Shown piece after piece: positions 3,001 to 28,322 of a DNA stretch of 64,000 nt (position 1 is the stretch's first letter; every line of letters begins with the position of its first letter). The stretch is from positions 35,962,001 to 36,026,000 of the forward strand of contig CM119372.1 of assembly GCA_051294905.1 (NCBI GenBank), read 5' to 3'. The stretch is from Botryllus schlosseri. Taxonomy: Eukaryota. Made by a program: the position numbers and the translations under genes. The notes below the pieces were generated by a model. That model was not told the DNA's origin and searched no databases. It was given only the letters and a program-made list of their open reading frames with translations.

Positions 3001-3024
3001 GGAATATCTGGGTGTGGCAGGAAT

Positions 3025-4426: not shown

Positions 4427-6900
4427 TAGCAACGTACATGTTTTATAGAATATATTAGATCCAATACCTATACTAAAGCCGCAAAACGCATTGGGGCATA
4501 AATGGATAATGCGCGCAGATCGAATTACACCGAGATTTCACGCATCATTTTAAATAGCAAATAACGTAATAATGAGTTCTGTGCTCGGCTATGCAATATA
4601 GCTGAAGTCGCATAAATTCGAATGTATATGCAAGTTCTCTGTTAAGGGTAGACTATCTAGTCTCGCTTATTACTCGAATCTCGCTGTGGTTACAAATACG
4701 GCATGGTAATGCATTGGAGTTTGAAGCTAAAACATCATATTTCATGCAGTCAAGAAGACTAGCACCGCAAGCCCGGAACTAGTTACAAGCATATAATGAC
4801 AAGGCAGATTACGCAACACTAAAGGCGGGCTATTTCATTTCTTGACTATATTGAAAAATCGACAGCGTACAGCGTATAGCTATAATTTTTCGATGCAGCA
4901 ATACACTTCAGATTAACGTAGATGTTTATAGAATATATTAGATCCAATACCTATACTAAAGTCGCATAACGCATTGGAGCATAAATGGATAATGCGCGCA
5001 GATCGAATTACACCGAGATTTCCCGCATCATTTTAAATAGCAAATAACGTAATAATGAGTTCTGTGCACGGCTATAATGTTAACCGAGGATATGGTCGAA
5101 TTCGGATAAATTCGTATGTACATTAGGGCTGTTCAAAAATAACTTTTTTTTTCCCGATTCAAGCCGGTCACCTCTTAAATCGTCAGGTTGCAGTAGAAAA
5201 CCTTGCTCACCAAATTTCACTCGATTCCAACCAGTAAAGGCCTCCGCAGATCCAATTAAAATTTTTAATTTATTATGGAAAATAAAAAAAAAAAATTCCA
5301 AATTTTTCTGCCAACCCCATGAAATTGTTGAGCTGTCTTCAAAGACGTTGCAAAACAAATTTGAGTCAATTCCGACCAGTAGAAGCGGAGTTATGTGAGT
5401 TTTTCGATGATATTTCTCGGATTATCCTTGATTGGTAGATAATCCGCGATTTACATGCAAGTTCCTAGTCCCGCTTATTACTCGTTCGCGCAGTGTGGTT
5501 ACAATATTATGAATTAATTAATTAGCTAGAGCAACAGTATATATATATATATATATATATATTATTTATCACCTATATTGAAATTCGCTCATTTCATTTC
5601 AGATCAAAACGCCGGCATTGCATACGCAATTCACGCTCCGAAATTGTTACATTTCTGTCACAACTATCGCGCTATGCACTTCACCTGATGACGCAGGTGA
5701 GTTAGGCTACATTTCCGTATAGATTTGGACTAAATTTGGTTATAATTACTCCGCGCGGGTATGCACTTCGGATTTGAGATGGATGTTAGTCTATGAATTC
5801 TAGCTTTACTCACGACCTAAGGTCGGTAAATTGCAAGCTGTAGCAAGCATCTAACTACTGAGATTATGCTGATTTTACAACCCCCATAAGCCGCTGCTTT
5901 TAGATACGTAATGGAGCTGATTTAATAGCTAGTGCAGTGATGCTTTATCTTACCATTTCTGATAGTGAATAAAATATATAGCCAATATAAACCTATGCTT
6001 ATAGTACCACGAATAGCATAGCTATATAATTTATCGACTATTCTAAGATTCGCTACGCCGCCGCGGATGGAAGCTAAATTTTTCATTTCAGATCAAAACG
6101 CCGACATCGCACACGCAATTTACGCACAGAAAATTTCACATTTCTGCTATCGCGCTATGCGCTTCGACTGATGACGCAGGCGAGTTAGGCTACATTTCCG
6201 TATAGATTTGGACTAAATTTGCTTATAATTACTCCGCGCGGGTATGCACTTCGGATTTGAGATGGATGTAAGTCTATGAATTCTAGCTTTACGCTCAACT
6301 ATAGCATAGATTGTGCCCGCAAAATGCAAATTCGTATTAAGTGTAGCCTGCCTAGCTCCGCTTATTACTCGATGTTCAGTAACGCCTAATGTAAGCTGCG
6401 TTTGCTGGGGCTATAGGAACGAAGTCACTCAATACAAATTCCTGGCTCCTGCTAGATGATGATAATATGAAGCCACTAGTCCATAAGCTGCTGCTTTTAG
6501 ATGCGTGATTTAAATAGCTAGTGCACTGATGCTTTTCCGATAGTGAATAAAATCTATAACCTATGTCTATGCTATAATTTATCTCCTAAAACGCTATGCC
6601 ACTGCGGGCTATAACATTTCGGATCACTGACATCACAGACGCCGACGTTCAAGCCTAGATCGTTGTGCAGCTATATCTATATCAAAGAAGTGTGCTGAGG
6701 TCGTATCAAAGTCGCTCAACTATAGCATAGATTGTGCCAGCAAAATGCAAATTCGTATTAAGGGTAGCCTGGCTAGTCCCGCTTATTACTCGATGTTCAG
6801 TAACGCCTAATGTAAGTTGCGTTTGCTGTAGGAGCGAAGTCACTCAATACAAATTCCTGGTTCTTGCTAGATGATGGTAATATGTAGCCACTATCACCTA
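4427..6900. repeat. Mosaic of duplicated 100-220 bp modules in the Polinton left arm
   Basis: Near-identical pairs ~4430-4592/4915-5074, ~5592-5808/6081-6291, ~5885-6035/6481-6583, ~6292-6478/6713-6893. Motif CTAGTCCCGCTTATTACTCG or close variants at ~4657, 5465, 6352, 6773. Confidence 0.85.
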
Positions 6901-7015
6901 ACCGAAAGCAAGTCTCTACTGCTGATTGAGATGATTGCTATAATGAACGTAGCGAATATCACCCTTAAACGTACTATGCAAACTTTGAAACTATTGATTT
7001 TATTCATATATACAT

Positions 7016-7471
7016 TTACACAATTTCATTTTCTTGCTTCAGCTCCTTGACGAAGCGTCGTACGATCGAATCATTCTTGCGGTGATCTTCCCCAAAGGAA
7101 TTTAAATAACGTTCCGTACTCCATCCGCGCGCCTTATGGACGATGAAGCTTAGACAATGATGACCGCAAGCTCTGGAACGTTTGTGCTGCAGACGCTTTA
7201 TGGAGCAGGTATAATTTTCTGGTTCTATAAAGCACGCAATCTCGTATTTCAGCGGCATTAAGCCAAAGCTATCGTGAAAATGTGTCTCATCCTCATCCGC
7301 GTAAATGCATATCCAGTGACTTCCGATTTTTCGAGCTTCGTCATAATTGATCACGATAGCATAAGGAGGAGGGGGTCGCCTCGGTAGTCGATCGATAGGA
7401 AATGTGCCAAGGAAAATATGTTTTGTTGACTCGCAGCACCACAATATTTGGTCTATTTCATCCCCGTTCAT
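7016..7471 (-). CDS. Adenain-like (C5) cysteine maturation protease
   Basis: Catalytic pattern GSHW ... FHDSFG ... LQHKRSRACGHHC; AATAAA just downstream of the stop. Confidence 0.93.
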   Translation of the reverse strand: MNGDEIDQILWCCESTKHIFLGTFPIDRLPRRPPPPYAIVINYDEARKIGSHWICIYADEDETHFHDSFGLMPLKYEIACFIEPENYTCSIKRLQHKRSRACGHHCLSFIVHKARGWSTERYLNSFGEDHRKNDSIVRRFVKELKQENEIV

Positions 7472-8731
7472 AGCACGGTCACTTTACGACTGCTACTGAT
7501 TTGCAATAGCTTTTGGAATTCCATGAAACAGAGCAAAGTAGTTTCGGCTGTTAGCCCGCCAGCAGGAAATGTGATTCGTACACTTAAGGTGCCACTCTTT
7601 TGTAAGTCAAAGCAATCATCCAAATCATCAGGGCGCAAATTATAAACCAGTAGACAGAAACCACTAGCGAACTCTTCAGGCGTTAGGAGTCCTATGTTTT
7701 TCTCCATTGCTCCCGTACCCTCAATCAGGTTATGGTAAAGCTCCGTGTAATGACCCTTATCGAAATCTAGCTCATAACCTCCCTCCGGAATCAGAAATCC
7801 GTTCAGTTTCAGTTCGAGTCGTTGCATATTATTGTGTATGAAATTATAAGGATTTTTCGTAACATCTCCTTGAAAGGCTTTCGTAGCTACCATTCCGATG
7901 ATTAGGCGAGAAGGTAGAGTCCCGCTATATAGATTCCCGATATCTATCTGCGTCGTAGCAGCCGCAAATGTTCGGGTGATCAACTTCATGTCGATATACG
8001 GATATTTCGCCTGAGCATTCACCATCATCGCTGTCTTCACATCATCGCTGACTCGTACGGTACATAACTGTAATTCCTTTTTTGTTAAGGTGAATTGGCC
8101 GGTAGCATCTCCCATCATAAAAAAGCTTTTCGGATTCAAGGTAAGCTCAAACTCGAGAGGCACGTCATGTAGGATGTAGCGGTCTTGCAGACATAGTCCG
8201 TGATGGATTTTTGCACGTATTTCCACCACGTTATCATCCTTATAGGCTTTACTCCTGTTGTAATATCCTTTGTTAGCTGAGGCGTTAGTACCACCGATCG
8301 TATCCATTTTCCCCAAAGTATCTTTTCTTCATCCTGAAGTCCTGAGTGTGGTGTTTTGCACGTCAAGCGGAGTGATAGGACGAATAACACTGTACTTTTA
8401 TATCTTGTTTCAAAGTTTCGTTAGCGACTTTAATTTGTAGTTGAGAAATCAAGGAATCCAAGATATTATTTACAACACCAACATCATCATCGGGGCCAAT
8501 TGCTTCGCCGCCTTTCTTTAATTGTAAATGAAATAAGAAATAGCTCTCGCTCAAATCGATAAAGTCTTCTGAGCCCTCAAAGCGGAATGTTATCACACTA
8601 GAGTTGTTCGAAATCGGTGCTATCTTGATGATTCTTTTCTTTTCAACGCTAGTCTGTGTCGCGGGAATGTGAAATAAATCCAATGAGGGATGTACCCCCT
8701 CTGGGGACTGTACATGAATTAACTCCGCCAT
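7468..8731 (-). pseudogene. Major capsid protein (double jelly-roll type), disrupted by a frameshift and an in-frame TGA
   Basis: ORF 8363-8731 (SLDLF..PATQTSVE, FIDLSESY) and ORF 7468-8316 (LPSRLIIGMV, NPYNF, SGTLSVRITF) are two halves of a Polinton MCP. The C-terminal frame extended upstream reads TTLRTSG*RKDTLGKMD, and the frame changes near 8400. Confidence 0.85.
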
Positions 8732-8780
8732 CTATCAAGTCTCAAGTAACAAATGATGCTTATCGTCGTGTAATATATAT

Positions 8781-9152
8781 TTATTCGAAAATATCTTTGC
8801 GACGTCTCTTTTTCGTGATCTTACGACCCCGTCTTGGCATTTTTCTTTTTCTCAGTAAAGAATCGAGAGCGTTCCCAGCGGCTTCTTTGCCACGTATTTT
8901 AAGACTATCGCCGACATTCTCTCCATTAAGAACATCAGAGGCTACTTGCGCCCCGGTATGTAGTAGACGCTTCCCGAGTGATTTTGCACCTTTCGAAATT
9001 AGAGGCATAACGCTTCTTCCGAACGAACGAAATAAGTTTCCAAGTCCATGACCTCTCTGCACTTTACCCCGAAAAAAATTGATATCACCACCGCTCTGTT
9101 GGTGATAATAGTTTCTGAACGCCTCCCGATCACAGCAATAATGACTCCTCAT
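8781..9152 (-). CDS. Basic virion core/cement protein with protease-cleavage-like motifs and an amphipathic helix
   Basis: YYxQQSGG and QRGHG-LGNLFRSFGR motifs typical of Polinton core proteins; Arg/Lys-rich tail ending DIFE; lies just before MCP. Confidence 0.75.
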   Translation of the reverse strand: MRSHYCCDREAFRNYYHQQSGGDINFFRGKVQRGHGLGNLFRSFGRSVMPLISKGAKSLGKRLLHTGAQVASDVLNGENVGDSLKIRGKEAAGNALDSLLRKRKMPRRGRKITKKRRRKDIFE

Positions 9153-9852
9153 GATGTCTCAAAGCAAGTGTGAGATGAAGAGGCGCGTTCCCAAACTTTA
9201 TAGCTTCGCCTTTATCATCACGAAGCATAACGCGTATCTCGCTTACTCGCTCCGTATTCAGAGGAAAGAAATATATTTTTTTGAATAGCATATGCTGATA
9301 TTCATCTATTCCCGTTGTAACACGGATATTGCGTAGTAGAGGCGCACTCGTATCACCTACAATTTGAGGGGTGATGACATCCGTATAAACTAAAACGTTG
9401 GTCACGGACACAGGTTCCCCTTGAAAGTGAATTTTTCTTCGTCTATGTAATCCACCATCTAGCTCTACCTCCGAACGAGCTCCTCCTCTGAGAACGGGGT
9501 TTCTATTATCCATGAAAAGTCTCGGACCGCTGGAACTCTTGTAAGGTCCCGCTATCAAGACCGGACCAGAACCGTCTACCCAAATAAATCGTGCTTTTTT
9601 CTGATCGTGATTGATACGCTTCATCAAACTAATTTTATCATGATAATCACCAGCCGGGAAATAATAAAAATTATTATCGCCTTCCGCATCATTCACGTAC
9701 CATAATAAGCCATCGTAAGGCTCGAACGTGGGCTGAAAATTATTTTTAAAAGACAACTCGGCAAGCCCTATCTCCCATTCACCAGAATCTATCGGTTTCG
9801 CGAGATCGATAGTAAAATCAGACTCGTGTGACGTAATATGAATATATTTCAT
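9130..9852 (-). CDS. Minor capsid (penton-like) protein, paralog 2
   Basis: WEIGLAELSF, VYTDVITPQIVGDTSAPLLRNI, YFFPL, LRDDKGEAIKF motifs of Polinton minor capsid proteins. Confidence 0.8.
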   Translation of the reverse strand: MKYIHITSHESDFTIDLAKPIDSGEWEIGLAELSFKNNFQPTFEPYDGLLWYVNDAEGDNNFYYFPAGDYHDKISLMKRINHDQKKARFIWVDGSGPVLIAGPYKSSSGPRLFMDNRNPVLRGGARSEVELDGGLHRRRKIHFQGEPVSVTNVLVYTDVITPQIVGDTSAPLLRNIRVTTGIDEYQHMLFKKIYFFPLNTERVSEIRVMLRDDKGEAIKFGNAPLHLTLALRHHEESLLL

Positions 9853-10658
9853 AATGCAACTCCCCGTCTACGAAAATGCAATACAACACTCGAAGGAGAA
9901 CTTCGAAAGGGTATTTTCTCACCCTCCTCATCAAGTAGCGATATTTCGACACGTTCTAGCCTATTTATATTAACAGGGAAATAAAATGGCTTCGTGTAAT
10001 ATTTCGAAAATGATTTACGATCGTTCACCTGTACGACACGTAACAACGGTAAGAGCCTACCGCTATCTTCTTGTGGCTCAATGATATTACAATGAACATA
10101 AACGAAATCGATAGTCGGATCATGTCGCATGCGAAAGTTCAAATGAATGATACCCTCAGTGAAAAAATAATTCCACAATGTACAATTAGTATTCGGGAAA
10201 TGAAACACCAATAACTCCTCCTTCGTTTCCTTACGCATAAGAGCACCGTACAATTCTCCGCGGCGTACCAAGCTACTATGCCCTATGTCCGTCTCTGGTC
10301 GCAATTTGTCGGTTACCTCGTTATGAGGTATAGAGATAGACATACTATGATTTTCAGGGAAACATGTTACTTTTGCATCAGGATTGTCTCTTTCCAACGA
10401 TCTATACAGGTCATATAACGAGTCGTATTCTCCCAATTTAAAATGAAATTTTCTTGCTCTCTTTTGCGATCTGATCCCATACCTATTCTTCGTGATCCTA
10501 TACTGTTTTTGATAATCCGTGGGGAAGGAGATCTCAGCCAGAGAAACTTCTGTATCTTCCACGTTTTTCGGGACGTCCAATTCAACGCAATAACTCGCTG
10601 TTGTATTATCAGGAAATTTATCCATGGAAGCGTTCGAAAATAGCGTGACGTAGCTCAT
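9849..10658 (-). CDS. Minor capsid (penton-like) protein, paralog 1 (likely start ATG 10658)
   Basis: MSYVTLFSNASMDKFPDNT start, EVSLAEISFP, YVHCNIIEPQ..LPLLRVV, SVVLHFR. Confidence 0.82.
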   Translation of the reverse strand: MSYVTLFSNASMDKFPDNTTASYCVELDVPKNVEDTEVSLAEISFPTDYQKQYRITKNRYGIRSQKRARKFHFKLGEYDSLYDLYRSLERDNPDAKVTCFPENHSMSISIPHNEVTDKLRPETDIGHSSLVRRGELYGALMRKETKEELLVFHFPNTNCTLWNYFFTEGIIHLNFRMRHDPTIDFVYVHCNIIEPQEDSGRLLPLLRVVQVNDRKSFSKYYTKPFYFPVNINRLERVEISLLDEEGEKIPFRSSPSSVVLHFRRRGVAL

Positions 10659-10864: not shown

Positions 10865-11194
10865 ATCCCAACCAGCGTACTAAATACTGTTCTCGTCCCG
10901 CGCGTTTACGCCTTCTTATAATCTTTTCGACACGCCAAGCTTGCGGTTCTTTTACGCGTTGGAGCTCCTCTCTATAAAATCTACCCTGGATGACTTCACC
11001 ACCGTAATCACGTAAGCCAGGGGTCGGCAACCTTTTGTTAGTCGCGGGCCAAACTTCGGGTGTTCAACCTTTTGGCGGGCCGGATTTTTTCTTTGTACTA
11101 TATTTTACGCTCACTTCGGTATATTATCCTACATTGCTGCAATCTCAATCATACCAACCCGAAGAGACATGTATTTACACTTCAACGACACAGA

Positions 11195-11620
11195 ATAATT
11201 GTGACAATTGCCGCAGCTTGCTTTGTGAAAGGTTTTCAACTTCTGGTAACAAGTCAGATGAAACAAGAATCAGACCCTATTCAAAATGGACGTCCGAAAT
11301 ACGTGATCTTAGCTTGCTCTTCGTGAATTTCATTGTTCAAAACTTTTGTTCACATGCGTACGTGCTTCCAAAAATCGATGCAATTTCTTTTGCATTGCTG
11401 GTCAAGCTGGGATAAAGACCAATTTCAAGAAAGTACTCTTTGTCAAAGTCATGCAGCGATATGCTCTTTGTATGAAATTTGTCATTCAATTCAACTGCAT
11501 CGCATTTTAGAAACGCCCATTTTCAGGCAATGGTATTGGCGTCCACATTAAACGGAGTACTGAATAGTCCGAATTAATTTTGTAGAGAAGGAATGTCGGA
11601 AAAGCGGGTGAATATTCAGT
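11195..11620 (-). pseudogene. Remnant of hAT transposase C-terminal dimerization region
   Basis: Manual minus-strand translation gives LFSTPFNVD and IASIFGSTYACEQKF*TMKFTKSKLRSRISDVHFE*, with stops. Confidence 0.8.
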
Positions 11621-12340
11621 AGTTAAACTTCGTATCACAGTTACAAATGTAATGTTGGTACTAGGTTTTCTCTCCTCCAGTATAGGAAACTGAGCATGAT
11701 TTTCTTTTTACTGTTGACATTTCAAGAGTCACAGATTTGTTTTGAATGCGCCTCAACATCTCATGTATGTAGTTGTTTTCCCCCTGAAGTTGCAAGTTCA
11801 ATTTGTTCAGATGTGACGTTAAATGTACCAGGAAAGCAAGATGAGATACCCATTTTCGATTACAAGATTACGAGTCGGCGATGTTTGTATTTTCGAGGAA
11901 AGTTGCTATTTCATTTCTCAGTTCATACACTCGTGTAAGCATAGCTTCTCGACTCAATGAGCGAACATGACAGATATAGGCCTACATGACATAGCCATAT
12001 TGATTCTCTGCTTCTAGTAATATCTGGCGTAACTGATTCAGTTGATGAGGCAAAAATCATATTAACAGTTATCCCCATTGTGGCCAAAACACTATTCAGG
12101 CACACAATGGCACACAATGCCTTCTGGAAAATCAAACCATAGACAGGCTAACTAACATACGGAGGCTAGTTATCTATAATCGAATAGTTTGAGATTCCGT
12201 CATTGCGTCTGAGATGCTCCAAGCGTTTTTGAAGCAAAGGAAGAACACCTTTATTGTCACACCCCGTTAGAGTGATTAGCGCTTTAAAAAAGCATGGAAC
12301 ACCTTCGGTTGCGACATACACCCGATTGATAAGTCTATAG

Positions 12341-13554
12341 CAGTGTTGCCAACTCCGGATGGAAGAAAATCGCTAAAACTGGTGTCAAAAATCGCTAGAT
12401 AGCGCTAAATATTGAGAAAAAAGCGCTAAAAAATAGCGCTAAATCTGCAAAAGGTGCTAAAGGTGTTAAATTGAACCATTATATCGATATATTCTTCTCA
12501 GCTATATTTTACTCGTCTGGGGCCAAAGTCACTTATCATACGTAATAGTCATATCTAAGCGTGACAAAACGGCAGTGCATTTCGATAAAGCAGATCGCTT
12601 TGCGCAACGATCGCTATACTGTGAACACTGACCAGGTTTGCAGGCATAACCGCTCACTATATCAGCGTGCCTTACTCGATGCGTCCGTGAATACGTGATG
12701 CGATGTACCGTGGTTATGCGCTTGACTTCTTCTCTAAACTGTGTTGGAGTTGGCCTACTTGATCACGACATGCGACTTGACACACGTGGACACGACATGC
12801 GACTTGACCCGTCACAATACGACGTTGAAACGGGTTTGTTTTCCACTATAAGTAGAGACCTTAAGAAAATAATCCGAGGACCAACCCGGTGTATGAAATG
12901 TAATTAATCTGGCCTTAAACGAATGACCAGACATTGGAGCGACCTCAAAACAGTCCCCAAAGTCTGGAAATCGGCATTGATAAGAACAATCGCTGGACGA
13001 AATTGGTCATTGTTATGTTCATTGTGTTGCGGCGGTGCCATTGTTGGAGCAATAATGCCGGTTTTCAGACTTTGAGGGCTGTTTCGGGGTGCATGGTTCC
13101 ATTGTCCGGACCAGATTTTATTTCGTATTTTCGAAATCACTGCGACACTATCTTTCGATTATGGCCATTGGCCAATTATATTAAACTTCAGCGTTCAGGT
13201 CGCCAGTTTTAGCACTGCCAACTATGCTACTTTTAGATTACTCAGCAAGAAGAGACACTGTTTGCCAATGCGTAACCGCCAGGAGTTGCGTATCTACTAC
13301 TATCTATCGGCAGGTAGTAATCTATAATCATATTTCATCGGAGTCCGCACTCTAGTGATCGGTATAGCCAATGCAGTCGTCAGCCAGAACTGATCTTTAG
13401 TGGTTATTTTCGGTAAAAAAGCGCTAAATAATCGCTAAATACTTCTTCAAAAATCGCTAGATTTATCGCTAGGCGCTAGATCCATATTTTTTGGCGCTAA
13501 ACCGGATGAAAAATCGCTAGATCTAGCGCGAAAATCGCTAAATTGGCAACACTG
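12341..13554. mobile_element. Non-autonomous hAT-like element nested in the 11018-13806 element
   Basis: TIRs CAGTGTTGCCAA / TTGGCAACACTG; many AAATCGCTA subterminal repeats at both ends; imperfect TSD GTCTATAG / GCTCTATAG. Confidence 0.82.
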
Positions 13555-14600
13555 GCTCTATAGTCTATCTCCATATCCTACTTCAACCACCTTCGTTTTA
13601 TGGCGTAACAATAGACTAATACGATGTAGGCTACTATTATATCGTAGCAATGCCGCATTTTTTTCATGCAGCGCTGTACTGCAGATTGAAACTCATTATG
13701 AAGCGGCGGGCCGTATTCTTGTGATAACTAATTATTATGTCGCGGGCCGGACGATTTCGCTTGGCGGGCCGGATCCGGCCCGCGGGCCGTAGGTTGCCGA
13801 CCCTTGACGTAAGCGATACATTGGGGGATCCCCCTTTTGGGCGTCTGCGATATAGAAAATTTCCCGTTGCCAGTTGGGTAGGCTGCTTTTCTCAAAAAGA
13901 TTTCGAATTTTCGATATACGGACGGGTAATCCTATAGCGAGGTCGGGTTGTTTAGCTTCTTGAAATCCGTAAAGTCTTCTCCAAACCGATTCCTGATTAG
14001 ACGAATTCACTTGGTTTGGGGCCATGGCAATGCTACGATGGTACGTCCTGTTGTAGGAGTAAGTAAAGTCATCGAGAGCGCTCACGTAATTCCTCGTGTT
14101 ATTTTTTGTGAAAAATCGATACATAATCGCCTTCATAGTACGAATCACCCTTTCGACGACAGAGGATTTTAATTCGCTCCTCGTATAGAAATATCTAACT
14201 TTGTTCTCCTTTAGATAGTTCTGGAAAGCGCGATTGGTATATTCGCTACCTTGATCGGTTTGTAACACTAACGGTACGCGTTCACGAAACACACGTTTGA
14301 AAGCAGAAATCATACTTGAAGCAGTTTTATTTTTAATCGCTATCATCCAAAGGTATTTGCTAAAAATATCAATCACCACCACCACAAAACGAAAACCGCT
14401 ATTGTACTTTGAAATAGATTGCAGATCCATCAAATCGCTCTGAAACTGAGCATTGATACCGGAGACCACTACACGTTCACGCCTAAATTTCTTACGTAAC
14501 GGAAAATGAAAAGTATAAGTATCTTGTCCTTTAAGCCATTCTTTTTCCTTTTGCAAATAAGCGCCCCTATACGATTTGGGCTGTTTCGGATCAAAATAGT

Positions 14601-14939
14601 CTACGTCTCCCATTCTTTCCCGTATATACGGGGATTAGGCTTACGCTGTCTCTTATAAAGCCAGGGAAACGAAGGTTGTGGAATCCGGCGCGGGCGTTTC
14701 TTTTGCGGGCGCTTTTCTTTCGCTACGGGGCTCGCGAGCCCCGTGTGTGCGGCGGGAGGGCGGGCGGTCGCTGCGTCTACGTCTTTTCTCAAGTTTCTCA
14801 GTTGAGCAATACCATGCCTATACAGAGCTAGTTTCTCGGAAGCATGTAATGGAGAGCTTTTAATTTTCGATATATGTTTATCAAATTTCTTTTCCCATTC
14901 GTCCTTGCTTCGAAATGCGGGGAATTGTAGTTCACGCAT
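14601..14939 (-). CDS. Polinton protein of unknown function, basic C-terminus
   Basis: Co-oriented ORF overlapping both neighbours; FDKHISKI..LHASEKLALY resembles a recurring Polinton N-terminal motif. Confidence 0.55.
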   Translation of the reverse strand: MRELQFPAFRSKDEWEKKFDKHISKIKSSPLHASEKLALYRHGIAQLRNLRKDVDAATARPPAAHTGLASPVAKEKRPQKKRPRRIPQPSFPWLYKRQRKPNPRIYGKEWET

Positions 14940-15340
14940 TCTTCCCGAAAAGTTTACCCAACAGACTCCCGATGACGGGGATTGCAGCGCCTAATATAGC
15001 TAAAAACAGACCGGTTAGAAAAAAGTTTCTATTTTATCATAATTTTTATACCTGAGAGGAATCCACCCTTTTGTAGCACCCTCCGTTGACCTCTGCGAGT
15101 TTTTTGCGCCAGCAATTGTCTGATATCGGATTTGTGTTTTCCAAGCCTCAACTTTCTAGACGGGGAGATACGTACTGTCCCCGAAGCCAAGTTATGAACG
15201 CACTGGCAGACGCAACTTAAAAATTGATTGTTCGATAAAAGTTCTTTTCGCTGTTTCCCTTTAGCGTTTTTCAAAAGTTTTAATTTAACGTGATAGTCGC
15301 TCAATCGTTTTCGAGATATGTTACTTCCCCTCTTCGACAT
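14932..15340 (-). CDS. Adenovirus pX-like basic core protein, two exons (15052-15340, 14932-14999), 118 aa
   Basis: 52-nt GT..AG intron 15051-15000 with CTAAC branch-like motif; splicing gives QKGG-FLSAILGAAIPVIGSLLGKLFGKNA*. Confidence 0.8.
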
Positions 15341-15375
15341 GTTGAATGCCCTAAAATCTGCAGCGCGAGCTGTAT

Positions 15376-15993
15376 TTATTCTTGATATACCGTCAACTTT
15401 TGGTGTGGGAATATTTTGCTGCGGAGACGATAATTTTCGTCTGTCTCTTGCGTCAAGTCAACTAGTATGTACGAGAACGGTTTTCGAGTTGCCTTTTTAT
15501 AAGCCTCCGTAAGGAATCCGGCTTTATCGGGGAACATTTGACGTGAAAGAAAACTGATTTGACTCGCATCACGGGGATTTTTAAATATCACGATATAGCT
15601 CGCGCTCAGGGTCATATCCCGAAAGCCTTGACCCCTATAGAACAAATTTTGACATATGAACACCACGCTGATCTTTGCGTGATGACTGTATCGAGTGAAT
15701 AGATCTCTGGCCTCTTTCGCTTCCGTCATCATGTCGTCGATCACCAAGAGAACGTGCCTATTTCCTTTCTGTAACTTTTTGAGCTCGGAGAGCCCTTGCG
15801 AGAATTCTACCCCTTTCATTTTATCGTACAACTCCTGATAATTATTATACAACCATACAATTTTTTCAGGAGCCGGTCTAATCATCTTCTCTGCGTTCTT
15901 CACCAACTCATAAGTAAAATAACTCTTCCCGCTACTGCTCGGACCAGCTACGATCATCCGAAACGGAGCATGCAATGTACGTATTCGATCCAT
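15376..15993 (-). CDS. A32/FtsK-HerA-like DNA packaging ATPase
   Basis: Walker A GPSSSGKS, Walker B LLVIDD, SHHAKISVVFICQN, FKNPRD. Confidence 0.95.
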   Translation of the reverse strand: MDRIRTLHAPFRMIVAGPSSSGKSYFTYELVKNAEKMIRPAPEKIVWLYNNYQELYDKMKGVEFSQGLSELKKLQKGNRHVLLVIDDMMTEAKEARDLFTRYSHHAKISVVFICQNLFYRGQGFRDMTLSASYIVIFKNPRDASQISFLSRQMFPDKAGFLTEAYKKATRKPFSYILVDLTQETDENYRLRSKIFPHQKLTVYQE

Positions 15994-15996
15994 TTA

Positions 15997-18900
15997 TTAC
16001 AGAGATAAAGGCAATGTATGAATTCCATCATTAAGCACAATCCTTTTATAATAACCATAACTCAATGCACTTCGATATTGCTTATACGTAAACATATCGC
16101 CCCCATAGCAACGAAAACCGCTATTGACGCCACCCGTGATCGATCTATTTTGAAGAATGCCTTTGAAATCTTTGAAAGTTTTGTTGGCCGTTTTTTGAAG
16201 CCCTTTCGAGCTGTACTTATCGCTGTCGCCTTTGCAATAATAGGTCTTGGAATTGAGGCCTATAAACCCATCTCCGATCCATTCTTCTTTGAATAAGCCC
16301 GGTATACGTTTCGAGTAATTGCGAACCTCAATGCAGCAAGCTTTATCAGTTTTAAAACCAACGGGAACTCGTTCAAAATCGCATTTATGCTCTCCACATG
16401 CGCGAGCCACGAACCATTTGTCGTGATTTTCAAAAAATTGTTTTTTCATGGAAGGCTTGATGAGAGAATAGATCGTATCGGAGCTTAAGCTTATGTACGC
16501 CGAATCAGTATCTGTTTCGAGGAAAGCCCAATCGCTATCGTCCAAATACACATGCAGACAGTCATATAGGAACTCGAGCATTCTCAGCTTGGCACAACAG
16601 AATATAAAGAAGCCCACAATGACTGGGTTTTCGTGACAAATGTTAAGGGGACGCGTAGCTACTTCGAGCAAGCCTTCATCGCTCTTATCAATTTCAACAG
16701 CATCGACAAAAAATTTTTTTTCAACGCGCGATGGTAATTCTTCCAATTTAACGTATTCGTGTTCCCTATATTTATTAGGGTTTTGAATAGTACGACCAAA
16801 AGCACTATTTCCAATCGTCTTCCAGGTCAACGCTTCCATTTCACGGGCCGGATCTTTTGGGAGGACATCGCCTTTGCGACGCTCAGAGGATACCCGCTCA
16901 ACGAAGGGTGTGAAAACTTGTTTTGGTTCATATTCGACAGCTTGGAATACGCGAGTCACGATCATGCCGCTTTTCAAGTACCACTGAAGCAAATCCGTAT
17001 TAAACAACTGTTTTTTCGTGAAATAACTAGAGCCCAGAAATTTTTTTGGAAACTTAATATTGTTTTCCTTGGCGTATTCACGCATATGTTCACCGATATC
17101 GCACTCGTTTACTTCCATATGTTTGAAAAAAAGAGGTAACTCTTCGAATTTCGATTTTAAATGGTCGGGACAATGAATGTCACACTCGATTGCACCGAAA
17201 AATGACCCGTCGAGCGTGCGCTTGAGCAACTGCGCCTCAGTGAGATAATAAGCTTTCGTGACTTTACGCTCGAACTTTGAGGCAAATTGCGCAATTTCAG
17301 GGTCTCGTTTCATATTCGTCCAAACGCACTCCTTCATACGGATAACGGTATATCCCAATTTTTCCAAATATTCCGTGTTTTGTTTGGTGAGTTCACGCCT
17401 TTCGGTGTTCTCTTTATCAGGGAAGCAGCTCCTACAAGCGTGGTAATAGCACCCATCGTACTGAAAGATGAGTTTACCGGCGTTCCCGTCGACAAATAGG
17501 CGTTTATTTCCGATTCTCACTTGACTACCGTTCCACGCGTGTTGAATTTTGATGTCACGAACGTGACTTTCGTATTCCAACCATTCGCGCTCCGCATGAG
17601 TAGGCCAAACGCGCTGTTTATGGAATTTTTGCTTTTCCTCATCATAAATCCACCTTATAGGGTAACCCGTTGGCATATTTTGATTTATGCACCCCAAATA
17701 GAGGGCATTGGCGTCGTATCCTACTACTTTCTTGACGGTTTTAGCACTGTCACCGTAGCGAAGACTGCGTATTTTCGTTTCACCCGCCATAGCGTACCGT
17801 GACGTAATCTGTGATAAACCTCCTACCAAGTTGTTCAGAATCGTTTCGTGAAGGTCAGCATTGGCCTTATTCAGAAGAGTGATATCGCAGCAATCACGAA
17901 ACATTAGTCTACTCGCTATATTCGGAAGGCTCACGTTACCCTTGAACATATCGATGCCAAGCGTTTTGTAAAATTCGAAATTGTTATTCAGCGCGGTCAG
18001 GAAGCCAATGACGTCACCTTCGTTGTAATATCGGAGAAAATCACGGAATGTGGTCATACCCTCGCGTTCCCATACAGCGACGCATTCTGCGTATTGCTCT
18101 TCCGTTATATTCGAATTGCGGAACGCGTTGTAAAACGATTCATGGGTCGGTAGCGACGTTTCATCAAGACGCTCGATGCTATCGAGATATTCGTAAGGGA
18201 AATAAAATTTTGCGTTTACCCCATCCCCGTATAGCTTCATGTACGCATCCAAACTATAACCCGGACTCGGGAATAGCGAAATATCCAGAAATTTTAATCT
18301 GTGCGTTGCGATTGTCAAATAGGCGCTGTTCCTTTTCAAAACGAAGAATCCGCTTTCCTTGTGCAAGGATTTGATTAGATATTTCTTGCATAAATTCAGA
18401 TCATAGCGCGAGGAATTGAAACCGATTATGGGTATCTGATCAAGCCACGTATGGAGTCGAAGCGAGATATTATCCAAATAGGATCTCCTATTAGTGGGAT
18501 CGATCAATTTCCGTTCTTCAATCAAATTCTCAAGTTCGATTATTTCGCTAGCGAAAGATTCTCGCATTTCGGTTGAGGCGAGTTCTTGTACGCGATAAAT
18601 TTCCCCAATCATTTCATCGATTAACGTCTGCGGGCAACCCTCGGATATGAAAGTTTTTGTTTCATTCGTTACGTTATTCGATAAGGACACAGAGACGGGA
18701 ACATGCCGATTAACGTATTCTACTTTTGCAGAATTAGCTCTGAGCTCATCCTTCACGAGCATGGATTCAAAGTCAAAACACATACGGTACGGGAAGAATC
18801 TCTTTTGGTTCTCAACGAAAATGCCTTCGGATTCCAATTGCTCGAATACGGTGGGTTTAGGACGATATACGCCGCTGGCATAATTCCGAGTCTGGGACGT

Positions 18901-19875
18901 TTTGCATTCACGTTTTAGATGCTTTGTCAGATTTGGCTTGGTTTTAAAGAAAAACTTGCATGATTCACAAAAGAATGTCTGGGAATAGAGTTCAATATTT
19001 GTGATCAAGCATGAATGAGAACGTTCCATGTGTATATGAACCACTGGGCCATCCGCTTCAGACTGTCGCAATAAAAATGGTTGATGATCGCGTTTTTCAT
19101 AAACAAGTATCTTTACGTGAAAACATTCCTCAACTTTATTCAGTTCATCGAGCGGTACACCATCATCTATAGGGATACGGTAACGTTCACGAAATTGAGA
19201 GGCCAATAGTGCGACGTGCTTCTCATCTCGTTTTTTCTTGATGAATTGGGATAAGCAACGGAAGAGGCATAGCGAATCGTTCAGTTGTGTTCCGTCCTGA
19301 TGTCGAACAAACGTTCTAATATACCGACAGTTTGATAGTTCCTTAGATATCGATGCACTAGGGCAGCCCAGTAAAACTCGCGGCATTTCGTACAAGAAAA
19401 ATTGAATATGTAATATTGCAACGCAATAAAACTTGGTGTCTGGTCTGGCTTGTCTGGCTTGCTCGTAAGCAGCTGATAAATCGATTTCGTTGATGAAACG
19501 ATCAAAGTCCTCACGTGAAAGTATAGGTGTCGGTAGATCCAAAACAGCATGGGTTGATTGCGGATGAAAATAGCTACGTCTTTCCGTCTCTCGATTATAA
19601 AGCAGGAAACCATAAGCATAGTTAGCTTTGAATTGTCGCAATCTTCTCGGGTATATCGATGACATGCGCGCATGAATATCATTTATACCTCTCCCGATCA
19701 GGCGTACATTGATCGCCTCTCTCGCCCCTCTCGCAACCCTCCTGCTGTTAAGCCACTCGGAATCGATAATCGAGTTGGAGTGCGATTGCATAAGCTCTGT
19801 TGCGTCGTTATTAAAACCGAGCGAATCATCGATGATGAAGCTAGCATCTTCTTCGTAGCGTCTTCGACGAGCCAT
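15997..19875 (-). CDS. Protein-primed family B DNA polymerase (pPolB), 1292 aa, uninterrupted
   Basis: Exo I CFDFES, Exo II FNSSRYD, Exo III YNEGDV, Pol A YDANALY, Pol B KTIGNSAFG, Pol C ETDTDS, SKTY, SSKG. N-terminal CLFRCL..HSCLI, a Cys/His finger and an internal VSR-like nuclease insert (QYDGCYYHAC). Confidence 0.97.
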   Translation of the reverse strand: MARRRRYEEDASFIIDDSLGFNNDATELMQSHSNSIIDSEWLNSRRVARGAREAINVRLIGRGINDIHARMSSIYPRRLRQFKANYAYGFLLYNRETERRSYFHPQSTHAVLDLPTPILSREDFDRFINEIDLSAAYEQARQARPDTKFYCVAILHIQFFLYEMPRVLLGCPSASISKELSNCRYIRTFVRHQDGTQLNDSLCLFRCLSQFIKKKRDEKHVALLASQFRERYRIPIDDGVPLDELNKVEECFHVKILVYEKRDHQPFLLRQSEADGPVVHIHMERSHSCLITNIELYSQTFFCESCKFFFKTKPNLTKHLKRECKTSQTRNYASGVYRPKPTVFEQLESEGIFVENQKRFFPYRMCFDFESMLVKDELRANSAKVEYVNRHVPVSVSLSNNVTNETKTFISEGCPQTLIDEMIGEIYRVQELASTEMRESFASEIIELENLIEERKLIDPTNRRSYLDNISLRLHTWLDQIPIIGFNSSRYDLNLCKKYLIKSLHKESGFFVLKRNSAYLTIATHRLKFLDISLFPSPGYSLDAYMKLYGDGVNAKFYFPYEYLDSIERLDETSLPTHESFYNAFRNSNITEEQYAECVAVWEREGMTTFRDFLRYYNEGDVIGFLTALNNNFEFYKTLGIDMFKGNVSLPNIASRLMFRDCCDITLLNKANADLHETILNNLVGGLSQITSRYAMAGETKIRSLRYGDSAKTVKKVVGYDANALYLGCINQNMPTGYPIRWIYDEEKQKFHKQRVWPTHAEREWLEYESHVRDIKIQHAWNGSQVRIGNKRLFVDGNAGKLIFQYDGCYYHACRSCFPDKENTERRELTKQNTEYLEKLGYTVIRMKECVWTNMKRDPEIAQFASKFERKVTKAYYLTEAQLLKRTLDGSFFGAIECDIHCPDHLKSKFEELPLFFKHMEVNECDIGEHMREYAKENNIKFPKKFLGSSYFTKKQLFNTDLLQWYLKSGMIVTRVFQAVEYEPKQVFTPFVERVSSERRKGDVLPKDPAREMEALTWKTIGNSAFGRTIQNPNKYREHEYVKLEELPSRVEKKFFVDAVEIDKSDEGLLEVATRPLNICHENPVIVGFFIFCCAKLRMLEFLYDCLHVYLDDSDWAFLETDTDSAYISLSSDTIYSLIKPSMKKQFFENHDKWFVARACGEHKCDFERVPVGFKTDKACCIEVRNYSKRIPGLFKEEWIGDGFIGLNSKTYYCKGDSDKYSSKGLQKTANKTFKDFKGILQNRSITGGVNSGFRCYGGDMFTYKQYRSALSYGYYKRIVLNDGIHTLPLSL

Positions 19876-19908
19876 ATAGTTTTAAGTATATTCTGTAAAA
19901 ATAGACAT

Positions 19909-20244
19909 TCACAAATTTATTCCATATTTCAAACGCAATTTACACTTGAAAGCTTCATAAAGGAACAGGAATTTGATATTTTCTAAGGTACGCAGTTCAT
20001 CGGCGTTGGGGGTAAATTTATCGATGTCTTTAAGCACATTTTTTGCTATAACGAGAAAATCTTTTTGCCATTCCCCATATCCTTCCAGTGAGACCATTTT
20101 TCGCCAAGTGGCAACTCTCTTGATATCATCGTCAACGAAACCTTCAAAGGTAGCGGTCGTAGCATCTCGCGTACGTCTTGTGTCTCCCGCACCGTATTGT
20201 TGTAACAACATATTTAGATCTTTACCACAATTATAAGGTTCCAT
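19909..20244 (-). CDS. Hypothetical Polinton protein (~111 aa, likely start ATG 20244)
   Basis: Fills the gap between the 413-aa ORF and pPolB; ATG preceded by TTGTTTTCTCAG; AATAAA overlaps its final codons. Confidence 0.6.
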   Translation of the reverse strand: MEPYNCGKDLNMLLQQYGAGDTRRTRDATTATFEGFVDDDIKRVATWRKMVSLEGYGEWQKDFLVIAKNVLKDIDKFTPNADELRTLENIKFLFLYEAFKCKLRLKYGINL

Positions 20245-20263
20245 ATTAATCTGAGAAAACAAA

Positions 20264-21505
20264 TCAAATATACCAGTCATTGTACTGTCGTTTGAGCTCA
20301 TCGAATTTGGCGTAAAATTCACGTGCATGCACATCGTTTTCAACATAAGAGGAATCGCTCTCAAATTCGGAATCTGACGGTATGAATGTACGACCAAATA
20401 TATCATGTATAATTTTACGGCGAGCATGCTTATTCATCTCAGGCAAGTAGCAAGGATAACACTGATTACCGAAGCGAATAATCACTGTGCTGGATTGAAA
20501 CATCCCTCCCAAATTGCGTAACATAACATCACTACCATTCTGAATTTCGGATACGAGCCAAAACGATGACGGCTTTACTCGTCCGTAAGCAGACTGCAAA
20601 GGACTGCGATGAATGTACATAATGGCTTCCTGCAACATCTTGTTATCGAAAAATAGAGACCCGCAATTGCGCATCACTGAAATAGATTTCTCGGTATTGT
20701 GAAATTTGAACGCCTCTAGATTCGGATGGAAAGGATCTAGGAAGTTGGCGATATCGTCAGAGAACAACAAATCGATCAACACTTCTTTTCCGGTCTGATT
20801 TTTGCCTTCTATAAAGAAGTGAGGCGCAAAATATTTCTTATGCATATGACCCTCCATTAGAGTGATAATGAACACAGCACGGAGAAAATTAGGGCTCCGT
20901 TTTCGATCAACGAACAACACCTCCTCGATATTCTGCTCCAGAGAACGGAAAAATAGTACACCATCATCAATCGTAAGTAGAGGGTAATCCAAATTATAAA
21001 TCAGACCATCAAACTTTTCCTCGTCCAATACGTTATTAGCGATACGACGTCGCTTATTGCGAAAAGGGGACGAACAAACTCTCCATGGGGTGATGATCGG
21101 TGAGTGAGGTGGGCTTTGAGCACTCGTCACAGCTGTCGAGTTATCAGTACTCTGTGGAGGCGTAAATTCAGCACCAACTGGTAGTATGCTCTTATCGAAG
21201 TCGAGTCTGCGCTTAGATTTAGGTTCACTTGGTCCCATCACCGGTCGTGGTATACCGATATTGATTGGAGTCATCACGTCAGCTAAGGGAGCCTCATCAG
21301 ATTGCGCCACTGCCTCATCAATAATTGTTACGTCATCATCACTAACTCCCGCCTCTTTACTCTTTTCAGCTGCAATCGTAACTTCGATCAATTCTGCATC
21401 GACATCGGAATCGAAATCACCAATCGGTAATGTATCTGCTTGATTATCAGGAATCATAGTTGTTGATTCGCTAACTACGTCGCTTGCTTTCTCCATTGTC
21501 GACAT
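20264..21505 (-). CDS. Orphan 413-aa protein: acidic N-terminus, RxL cyclin-docking motif, S/T-P cluster, NLS-like patch
   Basis: Long ORF with TATATAA ~40 nt upstream; contains KSKRRLDF, TPPQS, SPPHSPIITPWR, SPFRNKRRR. Confidence 0.8.
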   Translation of the reverse strand: MSTMEKASDVVSESTTMIPDNQADTLPIGDFDSDVDAELIEVTIAAEKSKEAGVSDDDVTIIDEAVAQSDEAPLADVMTPINIGIPRPVMGPSEPKSKRRLDFDKSILPVGAEFTPPQSTDNSTAVTSAQSPPHSPIITPWRVCSSPFRNKRRRIANNVLDEEKFDGLIYNLDYPLLTIDDGVLFFRSLEQNIEEVLFVDRKRSPNFLRAVFIITLMEGHMHKKYFAPHFFIEGKNQTGKEVLIDLLFSDDIANFLDPFHPNLEAFKFHNTEKSISVMRNCGSLFFDNKMLQEAIMYIHRSPLQSAYGRVKPSSFWLVSEIQNGSDVMLRNLGGMFQSSTVIIRFGNQCYPCYLPEMNKHARRKIIHDIFGRTFIPSDSEFESDSSYVENDVHAREFYAKFDELKRQYNDWYI

Positions 21506-21809
21506 CCTTTTTGCAGTATAGTTTAGTTCGTATTCGAGCCTCTCTTATATAGTGAACTACATGCGCTTTGCACGCGGAGAGCGCGTGATTGTATTCGTGG
21601 CATTCTTACTAGCATTCTAATTAATGACAATACGTACCAGGAACGGATATGAGGTACGTGTCTTTTTCTGTGAGCAGTCGACGTTCTAATTTCCATGATA
21701 CGACCTCGGGGCCTATCATTCGATCGGTACCAAGCACATTTTCGATGGTGCATAGCTCAATATCTATATAAAGCATACTGATCATGAGAGTATATCAATT
21801 TGGATAGCA
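21506..21809. promoter_or_regulatory. Divergent promoter region with two outward-facing TATA boxes
   Basis: TATATAA on minus strand at 21545-21551 and TATATAAA on plus strand at 21765-21772, each ~40 nt upstream of an ATG. Confidence 0.65.
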
Positions 21810-22391
21810 ATGTCGAACATTAATCAAAGCGATTCGCTACCTAGCCGTAGTGTGGATCCTACGAATTATGCTGCATTAAACTGCGCTTGCATCGGTACCA
21901 CAAGTAGCATAGATATAAGCGAAGATGAAACTCGGACGGGTCCCATTGAACAGTACCAAGCTATGATAAATAACAGAGGAGAAAAGATTTATGAATGCTA
22001 TGCGAAGCATAGAGATGTAACTGTCTCCCCGTTGAATGATCCCGTTTTCTATAACATGGTACGCTATGCTCGTAGACTAAGCACATTTATGCGGTGGCCG
22101 GATAATATCAATACCTCTGGAACCGAGCTCGCAGACTGCGGATTGTTCTATTTGGGCTATAAGGATCATTTAAAGTGTTTCTCGTGTGGCGGGCTGTTTC
22201 AAAATTGGTTGCCGTGCGATGACCCCTGGCTCGAGCATGCAAAGTTTTATCCTACGTGTCCTTTTCTCATAAAGCGTAAGGGGTTGCAATATATTCGTAA
22301 TGTCTGTTATGCGACACCTAATATAAGAAGAGGCTCGACTAAATTTGATGGCGAGGTGGAATTGCGTGATGACTGTTGTACTTATGTTTGA
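21810..22391 (+). CDS. Single-BIR inhibitor-of-apoptosis-like protein, no RING
   Basis: RRLSTFMRWP..ELADCGLFY..DHLKCFSCGG..WLPCDDPWLEHAKFYPTCPFL with complete CxxC..H..C zinc ligands. Confidence 0.92.
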   Translation: MSNINQSDSLPSRSVDPTNYAALNCACIGTTSSIDISEDETRTGPIEQYQAMINNRGEKIYECYAKHRDVTVSPLNDPVFYNMVRYARRLSTFMRWPDNINTSGTELADCGLFYLGYKDHLKCFSCGGLFQNWLPCDDPWLEHAKFYPTCPFLIKRKGLQYIRNVCYATPNIRRGSTKFDGEVELRDDCCTYV

Positions 22392-22407
22392 TATTTCTTT
22401 TCAAAGA

Positions 22408-22890
22408 ATGAGTCTAGCAATCCGTGGAGATACTATTCTGCCCCAAGGGCCCTATAGAAAAGACTTGTATCTTTTTAATGACATCACAAAATTACGTATC
22501 GAAGCTTCGAATGGAGCAGAATTGACCTCGGATCAACTCTTTGTACATTCCACAAACGGGACCATTCAGAAATATCGAGCCACTCTGAAGCATGAAGGAG
22601 GTCTGGTCGTTACGTATACTCGCGACGGAATCGAGCATTATCAACCTCTGAATCCGGCTGACGAATTCGTCATCTATTCGCCCAGCGTAGTTGTTCCTAA
22701 TCCCGACCTTCCGCTCGTATCGTATATACTACAAGCCAGTGATCGCTACATCAAACAGAACGGTCAGATCGAACGCAAGAACTCGGATCGCAACGTCGGA
22801 TGGCAGCAAAGCAGTGTACCTCGAAACATCAACCGATCCGGAGGATTTCAGCACGCGAATCGGCGCAATAGCGATCAGCGATATCATTGA
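22408..22890 (+). CDS. Hypothetical Polinton protein (160 aa from ATG 22408)
   Basis: ORF follows the BIR gene; TTTCTTTTCAAAG before the ATG; AATAAA ~17 nt after the stop. Confidence 0.6.
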   Translation: MSLAIRGDTILPQGPYRKDLYLFNDITKLRIEASNGAELTSDQLFVHSTNGTIQKYRATLKHEGGLVVTYTRDGIEHYQPLNPADEFVIYSPSVVVPNPDLPLVSYILQASDRYIKQNGQIERKNSDRNVGWQQSSVPRNINRSGGFQHANRRNSDQRYH

Positions 22891-23159
22891 TATGCTCTTT
22901 TTTCGAAATAAAATCGTACACTATACAATGCTATTTCAATGAGACCGAGTAAAAGTTAGGAGACATGAAAAGGGTCGTATGAAATGCGGTGACTACAGGG
23001 TTCGAACCTAGAACCTAGAGCAAGATAGCTGACTGATTCCTCTGTGATGACGTTATGAAATTTAGTTCAACGATTAGTGTAGCGAGAATTCTTATTCTCA
23101 AAAAACAGCTTAATACACATAATCATGATTATGTGCCAATGGGCGTTATATAGCTGAGG

Positions 23160-23332
23160 CGCTTGATGATGTGCCACAGATGACGTAGCAGATGATGTGG
23201 CAATAGATGATGTGGCAATAGGTGTGCTATAGGTGCGGTAATGGGCGGATGATGTGACAATGTAGGCGTGGCAATTAAGGCGACGTGGCGAAATTTGATT
23301 GGCCTGCAATAAAAGTAGATACCCTCACTACT
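23160..23332. repeat. Polinton right terminal region with GATGATGTGGCA-like short repeats
   Basis: About seven degenerate copies between ~23165 and 23290, then ..CCCTCACTACT terminus. Confidence 0.75.
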
Positions 23333-26638: not shown

Positions 26639-26706
26639 TTCGACCCTTCTCCGTAACCAAATTGAGAAACCTGTCACCGCATCAAACGTGCCGGGCATCG
26701 AACGTA

Positions 26707-28272: not shown

Positions 28273-28322
28273 ACTTCAAGTTTATTTGGGGTATACATCG
28301 GACAGATCTAATCCGTCTAGCT

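Follow-up and report, generated by a model that had tools for sequence, protein, structure and literature searches.

A decaying copy of a very probably young Polinton/adintovirus-type family in the ascidian Botryllus schlosseri, with unusual accessory cargo

Introduction

To our knowledge, the particles and life cycles of Polintons (Mavericks) are still poorly demonstrated in animals; Ciona Polintons are present in Repbase. Here, we describe an element of this kind from the ascidian Botryllus schlosseri. It lies in a stretch of 64,000 nucleotides (contig CM119372.1, positions 35,962,001 to 36,026,000 of the forward strand), referred to as the window, in which it ends at position 23332.

Several described systems are close to it, as far as the available parts of the cited papers go. 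A chromodomain on the integrase is a stated trait of adintoviruses (PMC11071296), whose PolB carries a domain labelled OTU (PMC11071308). In coral polintoviruses, helicases occur at low frequency (PMC11131425). Such a gene is thus not novel as such for animal Polintons, which may bear on the novelty of the gene ORF413 discussed below. Introners are known in dinoflagellate polinton-like elements (PMC11957031), and the aviadenovirus ORF2 is derived from a parvovirus Rep/NS1 protein with a mutant Walker A motif (PMC13172254, PMC7747739).

We find that the element is very probably a damaged copy of a young, multi-copy Polinton/Maverick family of the adintovirus type. It appears Beta-adintovirus-like, a likeness judged from published descriptions and not by comparison with the Terrapene reference sequences. 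The core genes are ordinary for a Polinton, and as an insertion in decay the studied copy is unremarkable. New are the cargo gene ORF413 and a probable short intron; what makes the element interesting is its cargo, together with the prospect that the family remains active.

Results

Gene content and gene order

Eleven densely packed genes occupy the minus strand in 7016-21505, followed by two plus-strand genes in 21810-22890. Read from right to left, the minus strand encodes ORF413, ORF172, the protein-primed DNA polymerase B (pPolB), a packaging ATPase, two short basic open reading frames (ORFs), the integrase, two minor-capsid-sized paralogues, a basic core ORF, the major capsid protein (MCP) and the protease. 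For comparison we used 78 metagenome loci, namely those found with the polymerase profile, which were searched with the element proteins by tblastn. The replication and virion genes are, apart from the second core gene treated below:

7016..7471, minus strand: maturation cysteine protease (adenain/Ulp1-type), 151 amino acids, intact; assigned by tblastn and motifs
7468..8731, minus strand: major capsid protein gene, broken; homologues in 16 of the 78 loci
8781..9152, minus strand: basic core protein, PW position, 123 amino acids, named by position; 24% lysine plus arginine; 11 of the 78 loci
9130..9852, minus strand: minor-capsid-like ORF 1, 240 amino acids; putative penton from position and size
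9849..10658, minus strand: minor-capsid-like ORF 2, 269 amino acids, paralogue of ORF 1; matches an ORF of contig L012
10818..11009, minus strand: C-terminal part of the integrase with chromodomain, open frame; Pfam Chromo, E 1.8e-9
13807..14613, minus strand: N-terminal and catalytic part of the rve integrase; Pfam rve, E 3.3e-13; D-D-E motifs
14601..14939, minus strand: basic ORF112, PZ position, assigned by position only; best phmmer match in related loci E 0.064
15376..15993, minus strand: FtsK/A32-type packaging ATPase, intact; Pfam Pox_A32, E 1.7e-8; Walker A and B
15997..19875, minus strand: pPolB, 1292 amino acids, intact; OTU-type Cys/His, exonuclease and polymerase motifs

The genes that mark Polintons are present (pPolB, rve integrase in two pieces, packaging ATPase, cysteine protease), as are two adintovirus traits, the N-terminal OTU domain on PolB and the C-terminal chromodomain on the integrase. 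Pfam matches within the element are rve, Pox_A32, BIR and Chromo. Among the 78 loci the protease is matched in 19, the MCP in 16, the ATPase in 14 and the integrase in 8, and the order POL-ATP-ORF103-INT-mCP-core-MCP-PRO is identical in the metagenome contig L012. Gene content, gene order and the ACTACT motif at the right end bear out the Polinton/adintovirus identity proposed in an earlier note on this DNA. Its statement that pPolB, ATPase, protease, both minor-capsid-sized ORFs and the basic core ORFs are uninterrupted is confirmed by the open reading frames.

The polymerase aligns over its full length with 42 homologues, the nearest being 55% identical. Its pair Cys203 and His287, in a region that we take to be of the OTU type (PMC11071308), is invariant in 10 of 10 rows of the alignment. 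In a FastTree tree of 38 rows (the window, 29 of the 42 homologues and 8 of the 78 loci), pPolB groups with P0001 and P0002 at a support of 100. Of the phylogenies that the earlier note had suggested, that of pPolB was built; a grouping with named Polintons does not follow from it, since no such reference is among the rows.

The protease (best E 2.5e-25 among its matched loci) keeps the His, Asp and Gln-Cys motifs and has a weak PDB match to African swine fever virus S273R (E 0.54); an AATAAA at 7004 lies beyond the gene. Both minor-capsid-like ORFs match the one such ORF of L012 (E 3e-16 and 1e-19) and share 22% identity with each other (E 1.8e-13). The core ORFs at 8781-9152 and 15029-15340 (minus strand) carry QxGG and QxGxG motifs, which presumably resemble adenain cleavage sites. 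No relative came up in IMG/VR with pPolB, its alignment or that of ORF413 as queries, nor did a phage collection yield one.

Lesions, termini and the left region

Reads or contigs were compared for four of 24 listed runs, X1, X5, X21 and X23; the summed depth in X1 is not a copy number and permits relative statements only. The features concerned are:

4431..7015, no strand: degenerate tandem units of about 420-490 bp, non-coding; duplications and contig joints
5117..5453, no strand: truncated high-copy repeat inserted in the studied copy; loose ends at 5116/5117 and 5453
11018..13806, no strand: hAT-type DNA transposon of 2,789 bp with decayed transposase, short terminal inverted repeats (TIRs) and an 8-bp target-site duplication (TSD)
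12341..13554, no strand: further element with 12-bp TIRs, nested inside the hAT element
22900..23332, no strand: right terminal region of short tandem motifs, ending in ACTACT; inner limit approximate
23333..23338, plus strand: hexamer CATGCT in the right flank, a candidate TSD half for which no partner was found

Two lesions in coding sequence were already named in the earlier note, and both are corroborated. Relative to a 426-amino-acid homologue that is 79% identical, the MCP changes frame at 8375/8373, where about five codons are missing, and has an in-frame stop near 8330. The integrase is split just ahead of its chromodomain by the insertion at 11018-13806, flanked by an exact 8-bp duplication (11010-11017 and 13807-13814); both halves are otherwise open. 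We take the inserted element to be a hAT member from its TIR/TSD pattern and transposase motifs. It has a very high depth in X1, and joints 12333->13561 in X1 and X5 represent hAT copies without the nested element. That these two genes were the sole damage does not hold, as the left terminus is missing as well and a repeat has inserted at 5117-5453. In total the element holds three insertions. Absent from the earlier note are the nested element, the repeat at 5117-5453 and a 52-nt interruption of a core gene (15000-15051).

The right end is present, with ACTACT at 23327-23332 followed by CATGCT. An inverted copy of this end was not found within the 64 kb by repeat search, blastn or nhmmer, AGTAGT does not occur left of 7537, and the window holds neither a second copy of the target site nor a TSD pair. 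Left of the element CATGCT occurs once, at 3719; no terminal motif follows it there, and we rejected it as left TSD. The right end also has an nhmmer match at 3866-3944 (E 0.006), in the same orientation, which was rejected as TIR. Hence a TIR pair and a TSD cannot be demonstrated, and the candidate 6-bp duplication CATGCT proposed before is reduced to one hexamer on the right. Without a left terminal repeat and a second target-site copy, 4427 is no demonstrated boundary: of the proposed limits 4427..23332 the right one stands, and the left one is merely the end of a TA run. Lacking the set of two TIRs and a 6-bp TSD, the copy is classed as a defective, not an intact, member of the Polintons/Mavericks.

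The tandem region at 4431-7015 is probably the left subterminal region of the element. A single X5 contig links the MCP and protease with it as far as 6819, and we infer that the sequence left of 6819 belongs to the element too. Copies of a 36-nt motif are spread between 4642 and 6793, and the depth of the region in X5 and X1 is within the range of the element body. Duplications (4431-4592/4915-5075, 5592-5816/6081-6299, 6292-6478/6713-6893) are accompanied by joints 6143->5658, 5875->6478 and 6111->4785, so that the number of units varies among copies. It is improbable that this sequence represents host flank or some other repeat, with the element cut just beyond the protease. Such a cut would agree with the blank tblastx search, the missing terminal motif and the similar depth at 3700-4366, by which the boundary is not marked; the contig reaching from the MCP to 6819, the depth and the repeated 36-nt motif speak against it. 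In the inserted repeat at 5117-5453 the X1 depth rises to 113,593 in its bin, compared with 1,600-5,000 in the element body. At 3700-4400 lies a repeated sequence that ends in the TA run and has a depth in X1 and X5 similar to the element body; it may have replaced the left terminus or may belong to the element.

With regard to the identity of the element, the following weigh against our assignment: the missing inverted copy of the right end, the missing second target site, the MCP match to Pfam DJR-like_dom (E 0.006), which stays under the cut-off, and the putative identities of the double-jelly-roll MCP and the single-jelly-roll penton, which rest on synteny, position and size.

Relatives, age and expression

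Part of 14000-23900 is held by 20 runs from 11 studies, and four of them hold at least half of the sampled words; one of the studies may be the source of the studied sequence, and X1 may be the source sample. X5 belongs to an independent study; its six listed pieces that fall on the element show 145 differences in 8,284 bases (1.75%). X5 record 10 ceases to fit at 8374 with 14 letters over, the site of the MCP lesion, and record 13 at 13807 with 69 letters over, the site of the integrase lesion. These contig ends fit copies without the two lesions, which thus look private to the studied copy. At six listed positions all X1 and X5 contigs differ from the window, so that these changes are private as well. 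About 10.4 kb of coding sequence are free of stops, whereas roughly four would be expected at 1% private divergence if, as a rough assumption, 4% of substitutions give stops; the studied copy is therefore little decayed.

Of the earlier inference that integration was recent and that intact relatives may still exist, a young family with close relatives is supported (1.75% in X5, 20 runs); an intact copy is not among the material compared. The joined, lesion-free form is not found among the listed X5 rows, and no single contig spans the element, two facts that count against a young family with sound members.

Toward the right end the X1 depth rises about sixfold, from 5,307 at 22472 to 31,184 at 22898, which suggests many short non-autonomous derivatives of the right terminal segment (22472-23332). 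In the single-cell RNA of X23, with strands assigned by the usual-library rule, the minus-strand genes have sense reads in 11 of 16 bins compared with antisense reads in 4 of 16, and a plus-strand pile of mean depth 20.9 lies at 22376-23042, by the AATAAA of ORF180. Since this pile overlaps the high-copy right end, expression is suggested only. The RNA of X21 (organism C) has reads on the hAT ends and none on the element body, which is uninformative on expression in the host; the listed holder runs of the element include no RNA records.

From these data one could go further and propose that the family keeps replication-competent, virion-making members which spread between animals, the studied copy being a recent casualty. 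We regard this as possible, somewhat short of an even chance. The open coding sequence, the low divergence to X5, the four organism labels of the holder runs, and the sense bias and pile in X23 are in agreement with it. On the other side, the RNA depth over the element body is only 0-2.1, the pile may stem from short derivatives elsewhere given the sixfold excess of the terminal segment in X1 DNA, and neither free ends nor particles nor an intact copy were observed in the contigs and RNA reads compared.

ORF413 and the accessory genes

The right part of the element carries its accessory genes:

19909..20427, minus strand: ORF172; sub-threshold Pfam match to DUF7950 only, E 0.003
20264..21505, minus strand: ORF413; acidic N-terminus, RxL, serine/threonine-proline (S/T-P) sites and a basic stretch like a nuclear localisation signal (NLS); C-terminal domain resembling superfamily 3 helicases
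21506..21809, no strand: divergent intergenic region; TATA-like boxes at 21551 (minus) and 21765 (plus)
21810..22391, plus strand: single-BIR inhibitor-of-apoptosis-like protein, 193 amino acids, intact; Pfam BIR, E 1.2e-18
22348..22890, plus strand: ORF180; AATAAA at 22907

ORF413 probably derives from a superfamily 3 helicase of the NS1/E1 type, as judged from its sequence. In the ESM Atlas, residues 135-413 score 0.90-0.91 to Parvo_NS1/PPV_E1_C clusters (the top four), the best family matches fall into one clan in 10 of 10 cases, and one match is a Preplasmiviricota cluster named 'Protein ORF12'. Helicase profiles were made from 108 domains found in two pattern scans, of which the two largest clusters were used (49 E1-like, 32 NS1-like); we take these labels from motif and contig size. 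Aligned by hhalign with the combined E1 and NS1 profile, ORF413 covers 106 columns with the positions of Walker A, B, B', C and the arginine finger in order; in 150 shuffles no alignment was as long. In this alignment only the lysine of Walker A is kept; the following serine/threonine, the Walker B acids, the asparagine of motif C and the arginine finger are replaced, and for this reason we do not class ORF413 as an active helicase. A search of 1.84 billion representatives yields one homologue, P0045 (E 1e-4); its N-terminus is likewise acidic and is repetitive, and its Walker A is still more degenerate, with the lysine lost too. In the N-terminus of ORF413, residues 79-146 contain six S/T-P sites; RxL lies at 98-103, and residues 149-154 form a basic stretch. 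Short motifs of this kind also arise by chance.

Several results weigh against a helicase origin. An Atlas score of 0.9 is attained by shuffled proteins in 4-10 cases per 100, the hhalign score of 17.2 is not significant (reached by 10 of 150 shuffles), the scores with separate E1 and NS1 profiles are reached by 10 and 14 of 60 shuffles, ORF413 is not ranked by hmmsearch with the helicase profiles, and sequence searches of Pfam, PHROGs and PDB return nothing. AlphaFold2 models have a mean predicted local distance difference test score (pLDDT) of 38.6 for ORF413 alone and 40.2 with the one homologue; Foldseek and VIA, run with the second of these models, which is too poor to decide the fold, gave no meaningful match. 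With all classical profile and structure searches blank or non-significant, ORF413 could be an unrelated orphan regulatory protein of the 'Oncoid' type, its helicase likeness being chance or a generic alpha/beta pattern. The position is in favour of this, as motif-rich Oncoid genes sit upstream of PolB in the available parts of Starrett et al. (PMC8502044). We nevertheless consider an orphan rather unlikely, because the Atlas family matches are consistent, five motif positions are ordered across the 106 columns, and even the poor model predicts a strand-loop-helix where Walker A would lie.

The BIR protein is nearest to the BIR3 domains of cIAP1 and XIAP and to NAIP in PDB (E down to 1e-24) and keeps the CCHC zinc ligands; no RING was seen in the three frames downstream. 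A BIR-coding stretch also occurs at L015:2085-2390 beside matches to ATPase, MCP and protease, in one of the 78 loci. The TATA-like boxes between ORF413 and the BIR gene suggest a divergent promoter. ORF172 has no match in the 78 loci; ORF180 has none in Pfam, PHROGs or the 78 loci, and no usable one in the ESM Atlas.

A probable intron in the core gene

The basic core gene in the PM position consists of the following parts:

14932..14999, minus strand: probable second core-gene exon, amphipathic tail; matches homologue tails in L007, L012 and L020
15000..15051, minus strand: probable spliceosomal intron of 52 nt; GT..AG, CTAAC, 23% GC
15029..15340, minus strand: basic core gene, ORF103 (first exon if spliced); 5 of the 78 loci; 26% lysine plus arginine

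ORF103 ends oddly after a GG motif, and three homologues run on into a continuous amphipathic tail at exactly the borders of the 52-nt segment. This segment, a probable spliceosomal intron from its sequence context, has 23% GC compared with 43% in the exon, and the stop codon of the tail overlaps the start codon of ORF112. An X5 contig (record 13) crosses it with a single 1-nt gap overall. We give little probability to an unspliced insertion that truncates the core protein family-wide. It would be in line with a chance-level occurrence of GT..AG plus branch motif (1 seen, mean 1.4 in 200 shuffles), with the lack of a spliced read among those listed, and with the intact vertebrate Mavericks reported as intronless in the available parts of PMC8097293. 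Against it stand the borders at the homologues' tail, the GC contrast, the overlapping stop and start codons, and the presence of the segment in X5 too.

Flanking sequence

Exons of a GPX4-like glutathione peroxidase follow on the plus strand at 23708-23862, 25772-25856 and about 26590-26638, the first of them matched in PDB and beginning 375 bp right of the element end. A search of 1-30000 outside the element did not recover an upstream exon, for which we take FPCNQF and NVAS to be diagnostic, and the 5' exons are absent from the window; an intronic insertion of the element is therefore not demonstrated. The gene may be cut, or the element may sit within a very long intron of it.

A NACHT/NLR-like gene at 61050-62609 (minus strand) is of a kind expanded in Styela; all 14 matches of this exon are Styela clava proteins with 31-36% identity, in line with an ascidian host. 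Near it, 53659-54079 and 47457-48204 (minus strand) look like leucine-rich-repeat exons. At 34448-35942 (minus strand) lie frameshifted ORFs, which we take from their motifs to be a piggyBac transposase. Long inverted arms at 55119-57919 (about 270 bp, 89-96%) and 40559-40967 (147 bp, 95%) mark elements that are probably young non-autonomous DNA transposons.

Discussion

By analogy with the known family, an intact member would integrate via its rve-chromodomain integrase, and its linear genome would be copied from the terminal repeats by the protein-primed polymerase. The ATPase would package this genome into a capsid of the double-jelly-roll type, for whose maturation the protease would serve. 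ORF413, ORF172 and the core genes might be expressed in one direction and BIR and ORF180 in the other, from a divergent promoter. BIR probably would block caspase-driven cell death, and ORF413 would most likely be a helicase-derived, nuclear DNA-binding or scaffold protein without ATP hydrolysis, regulated by cyclin and cyclin-dependent kinase (CDK). After integration, the studied copy would have lost its left end, received insertions in the integrase and the left region, and lost its capsid coding, so that it could neither integrate nor produce its own capsid.

A bolder proposal is that a still-active ascidian Polinton lineage acquired a helicase of the E1/NS1 type from a small DNA virus and kept it as a catalytically dead, cyclin/CDK-regulated accessory protein, in parallel to the aviadenovirus ORF2. 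A bidirectional early promoter would serve both this gene and an apoptosis inhibitor, and a virion core gene would be spliced. We consider it unlikely that all of this holds together. If true, an early programme like that of adenoviruses would exist in an invertebrate chordate that is readily accessible to laboratory work. A dead superfamily 3 helicase in ORF413 would make the element the second pPolB virus to keep a disabled Rep, after the aviadenoviruses. It would also fit the reported pattern that active helicases accompany the loss of the exonuclease (PMC11071308), as the exonuclease motifs of pPolB are retained. Since the host is a well-sequenced invertebrate chordate, a young family of this kind, with many copies and low-level RNA, offers a practical opportunity to seek free genomes.

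The available parts of PMC8502044 and PMC11071296 describe no NS1/E1-like gene in an adintovirus, those of the Starrett supplement file (PMC8502044) contain no tunicate names, and helicase has zero occurrences in 10.1101/2023.08.22.554363. We found no paper on an ascidian Polinton with such a gene set, with subscription journals and Repbase outside the search.

Compared with the vertebrate Mavericks/Polintons, as far as described in the available parts of PMC8097293, the element shares the core order ppolb-atp-pm-pz and int-mcp-pw-Mcp-pro, the (ACT)2 motif at the 3' end and an accessory region adjoining the core; the single-strand layout is that of the Xenopus tropicalis elements. It differs in its ascidian host, the duplicated minor capsid, the short ORF in the PZ position and the probable intron, and the studied copy is without left TIR and TSD. 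With the Beta adintoviruses, according to the accessible portions of PMC8502044 and PMC11071296, it has in common an OTU-type PolB without PF03175 match, a chromodomain rve integrase and an IAP homologue, and also, from PMC8502044, a motif-rich gene upstream of PolB and the duplicate pentons of some members. The BIR protein resembles cIAP1/XIAP BIR3 and NAIP BIR in its zinc ligands and fold-defining motifs; unlike these, it has one BIR and no RING or CARD.

ORF413 is like the papillomavirus E1 and parvovirus NS1 helicases in the order and spacing of motif positions, and like E1 in its N-terminal RxL, CDK sites and NLS (PMC5398564, available parts). It is unlike both in its replaced catalytic residues, in that no origin-binding or HUH domain is recognised, and in the non-significant alignment score. 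The closest precedent would be the aviadenovirus ORF2, as an analogy. According to the available parts of PMC13172254 and PMC7747739, ORF2 likewise has a helicase-type domain without HUH nuclease, a place near replication genes and a damaged ATPase site. ORF2 is recognisably NS1-like by sequence, whereas ORF413 is not; ORF413 in turn keeps the Walker A lysine, is without Walker B and has an E1-like N-terminus with RxL, CDK sites and NLS.

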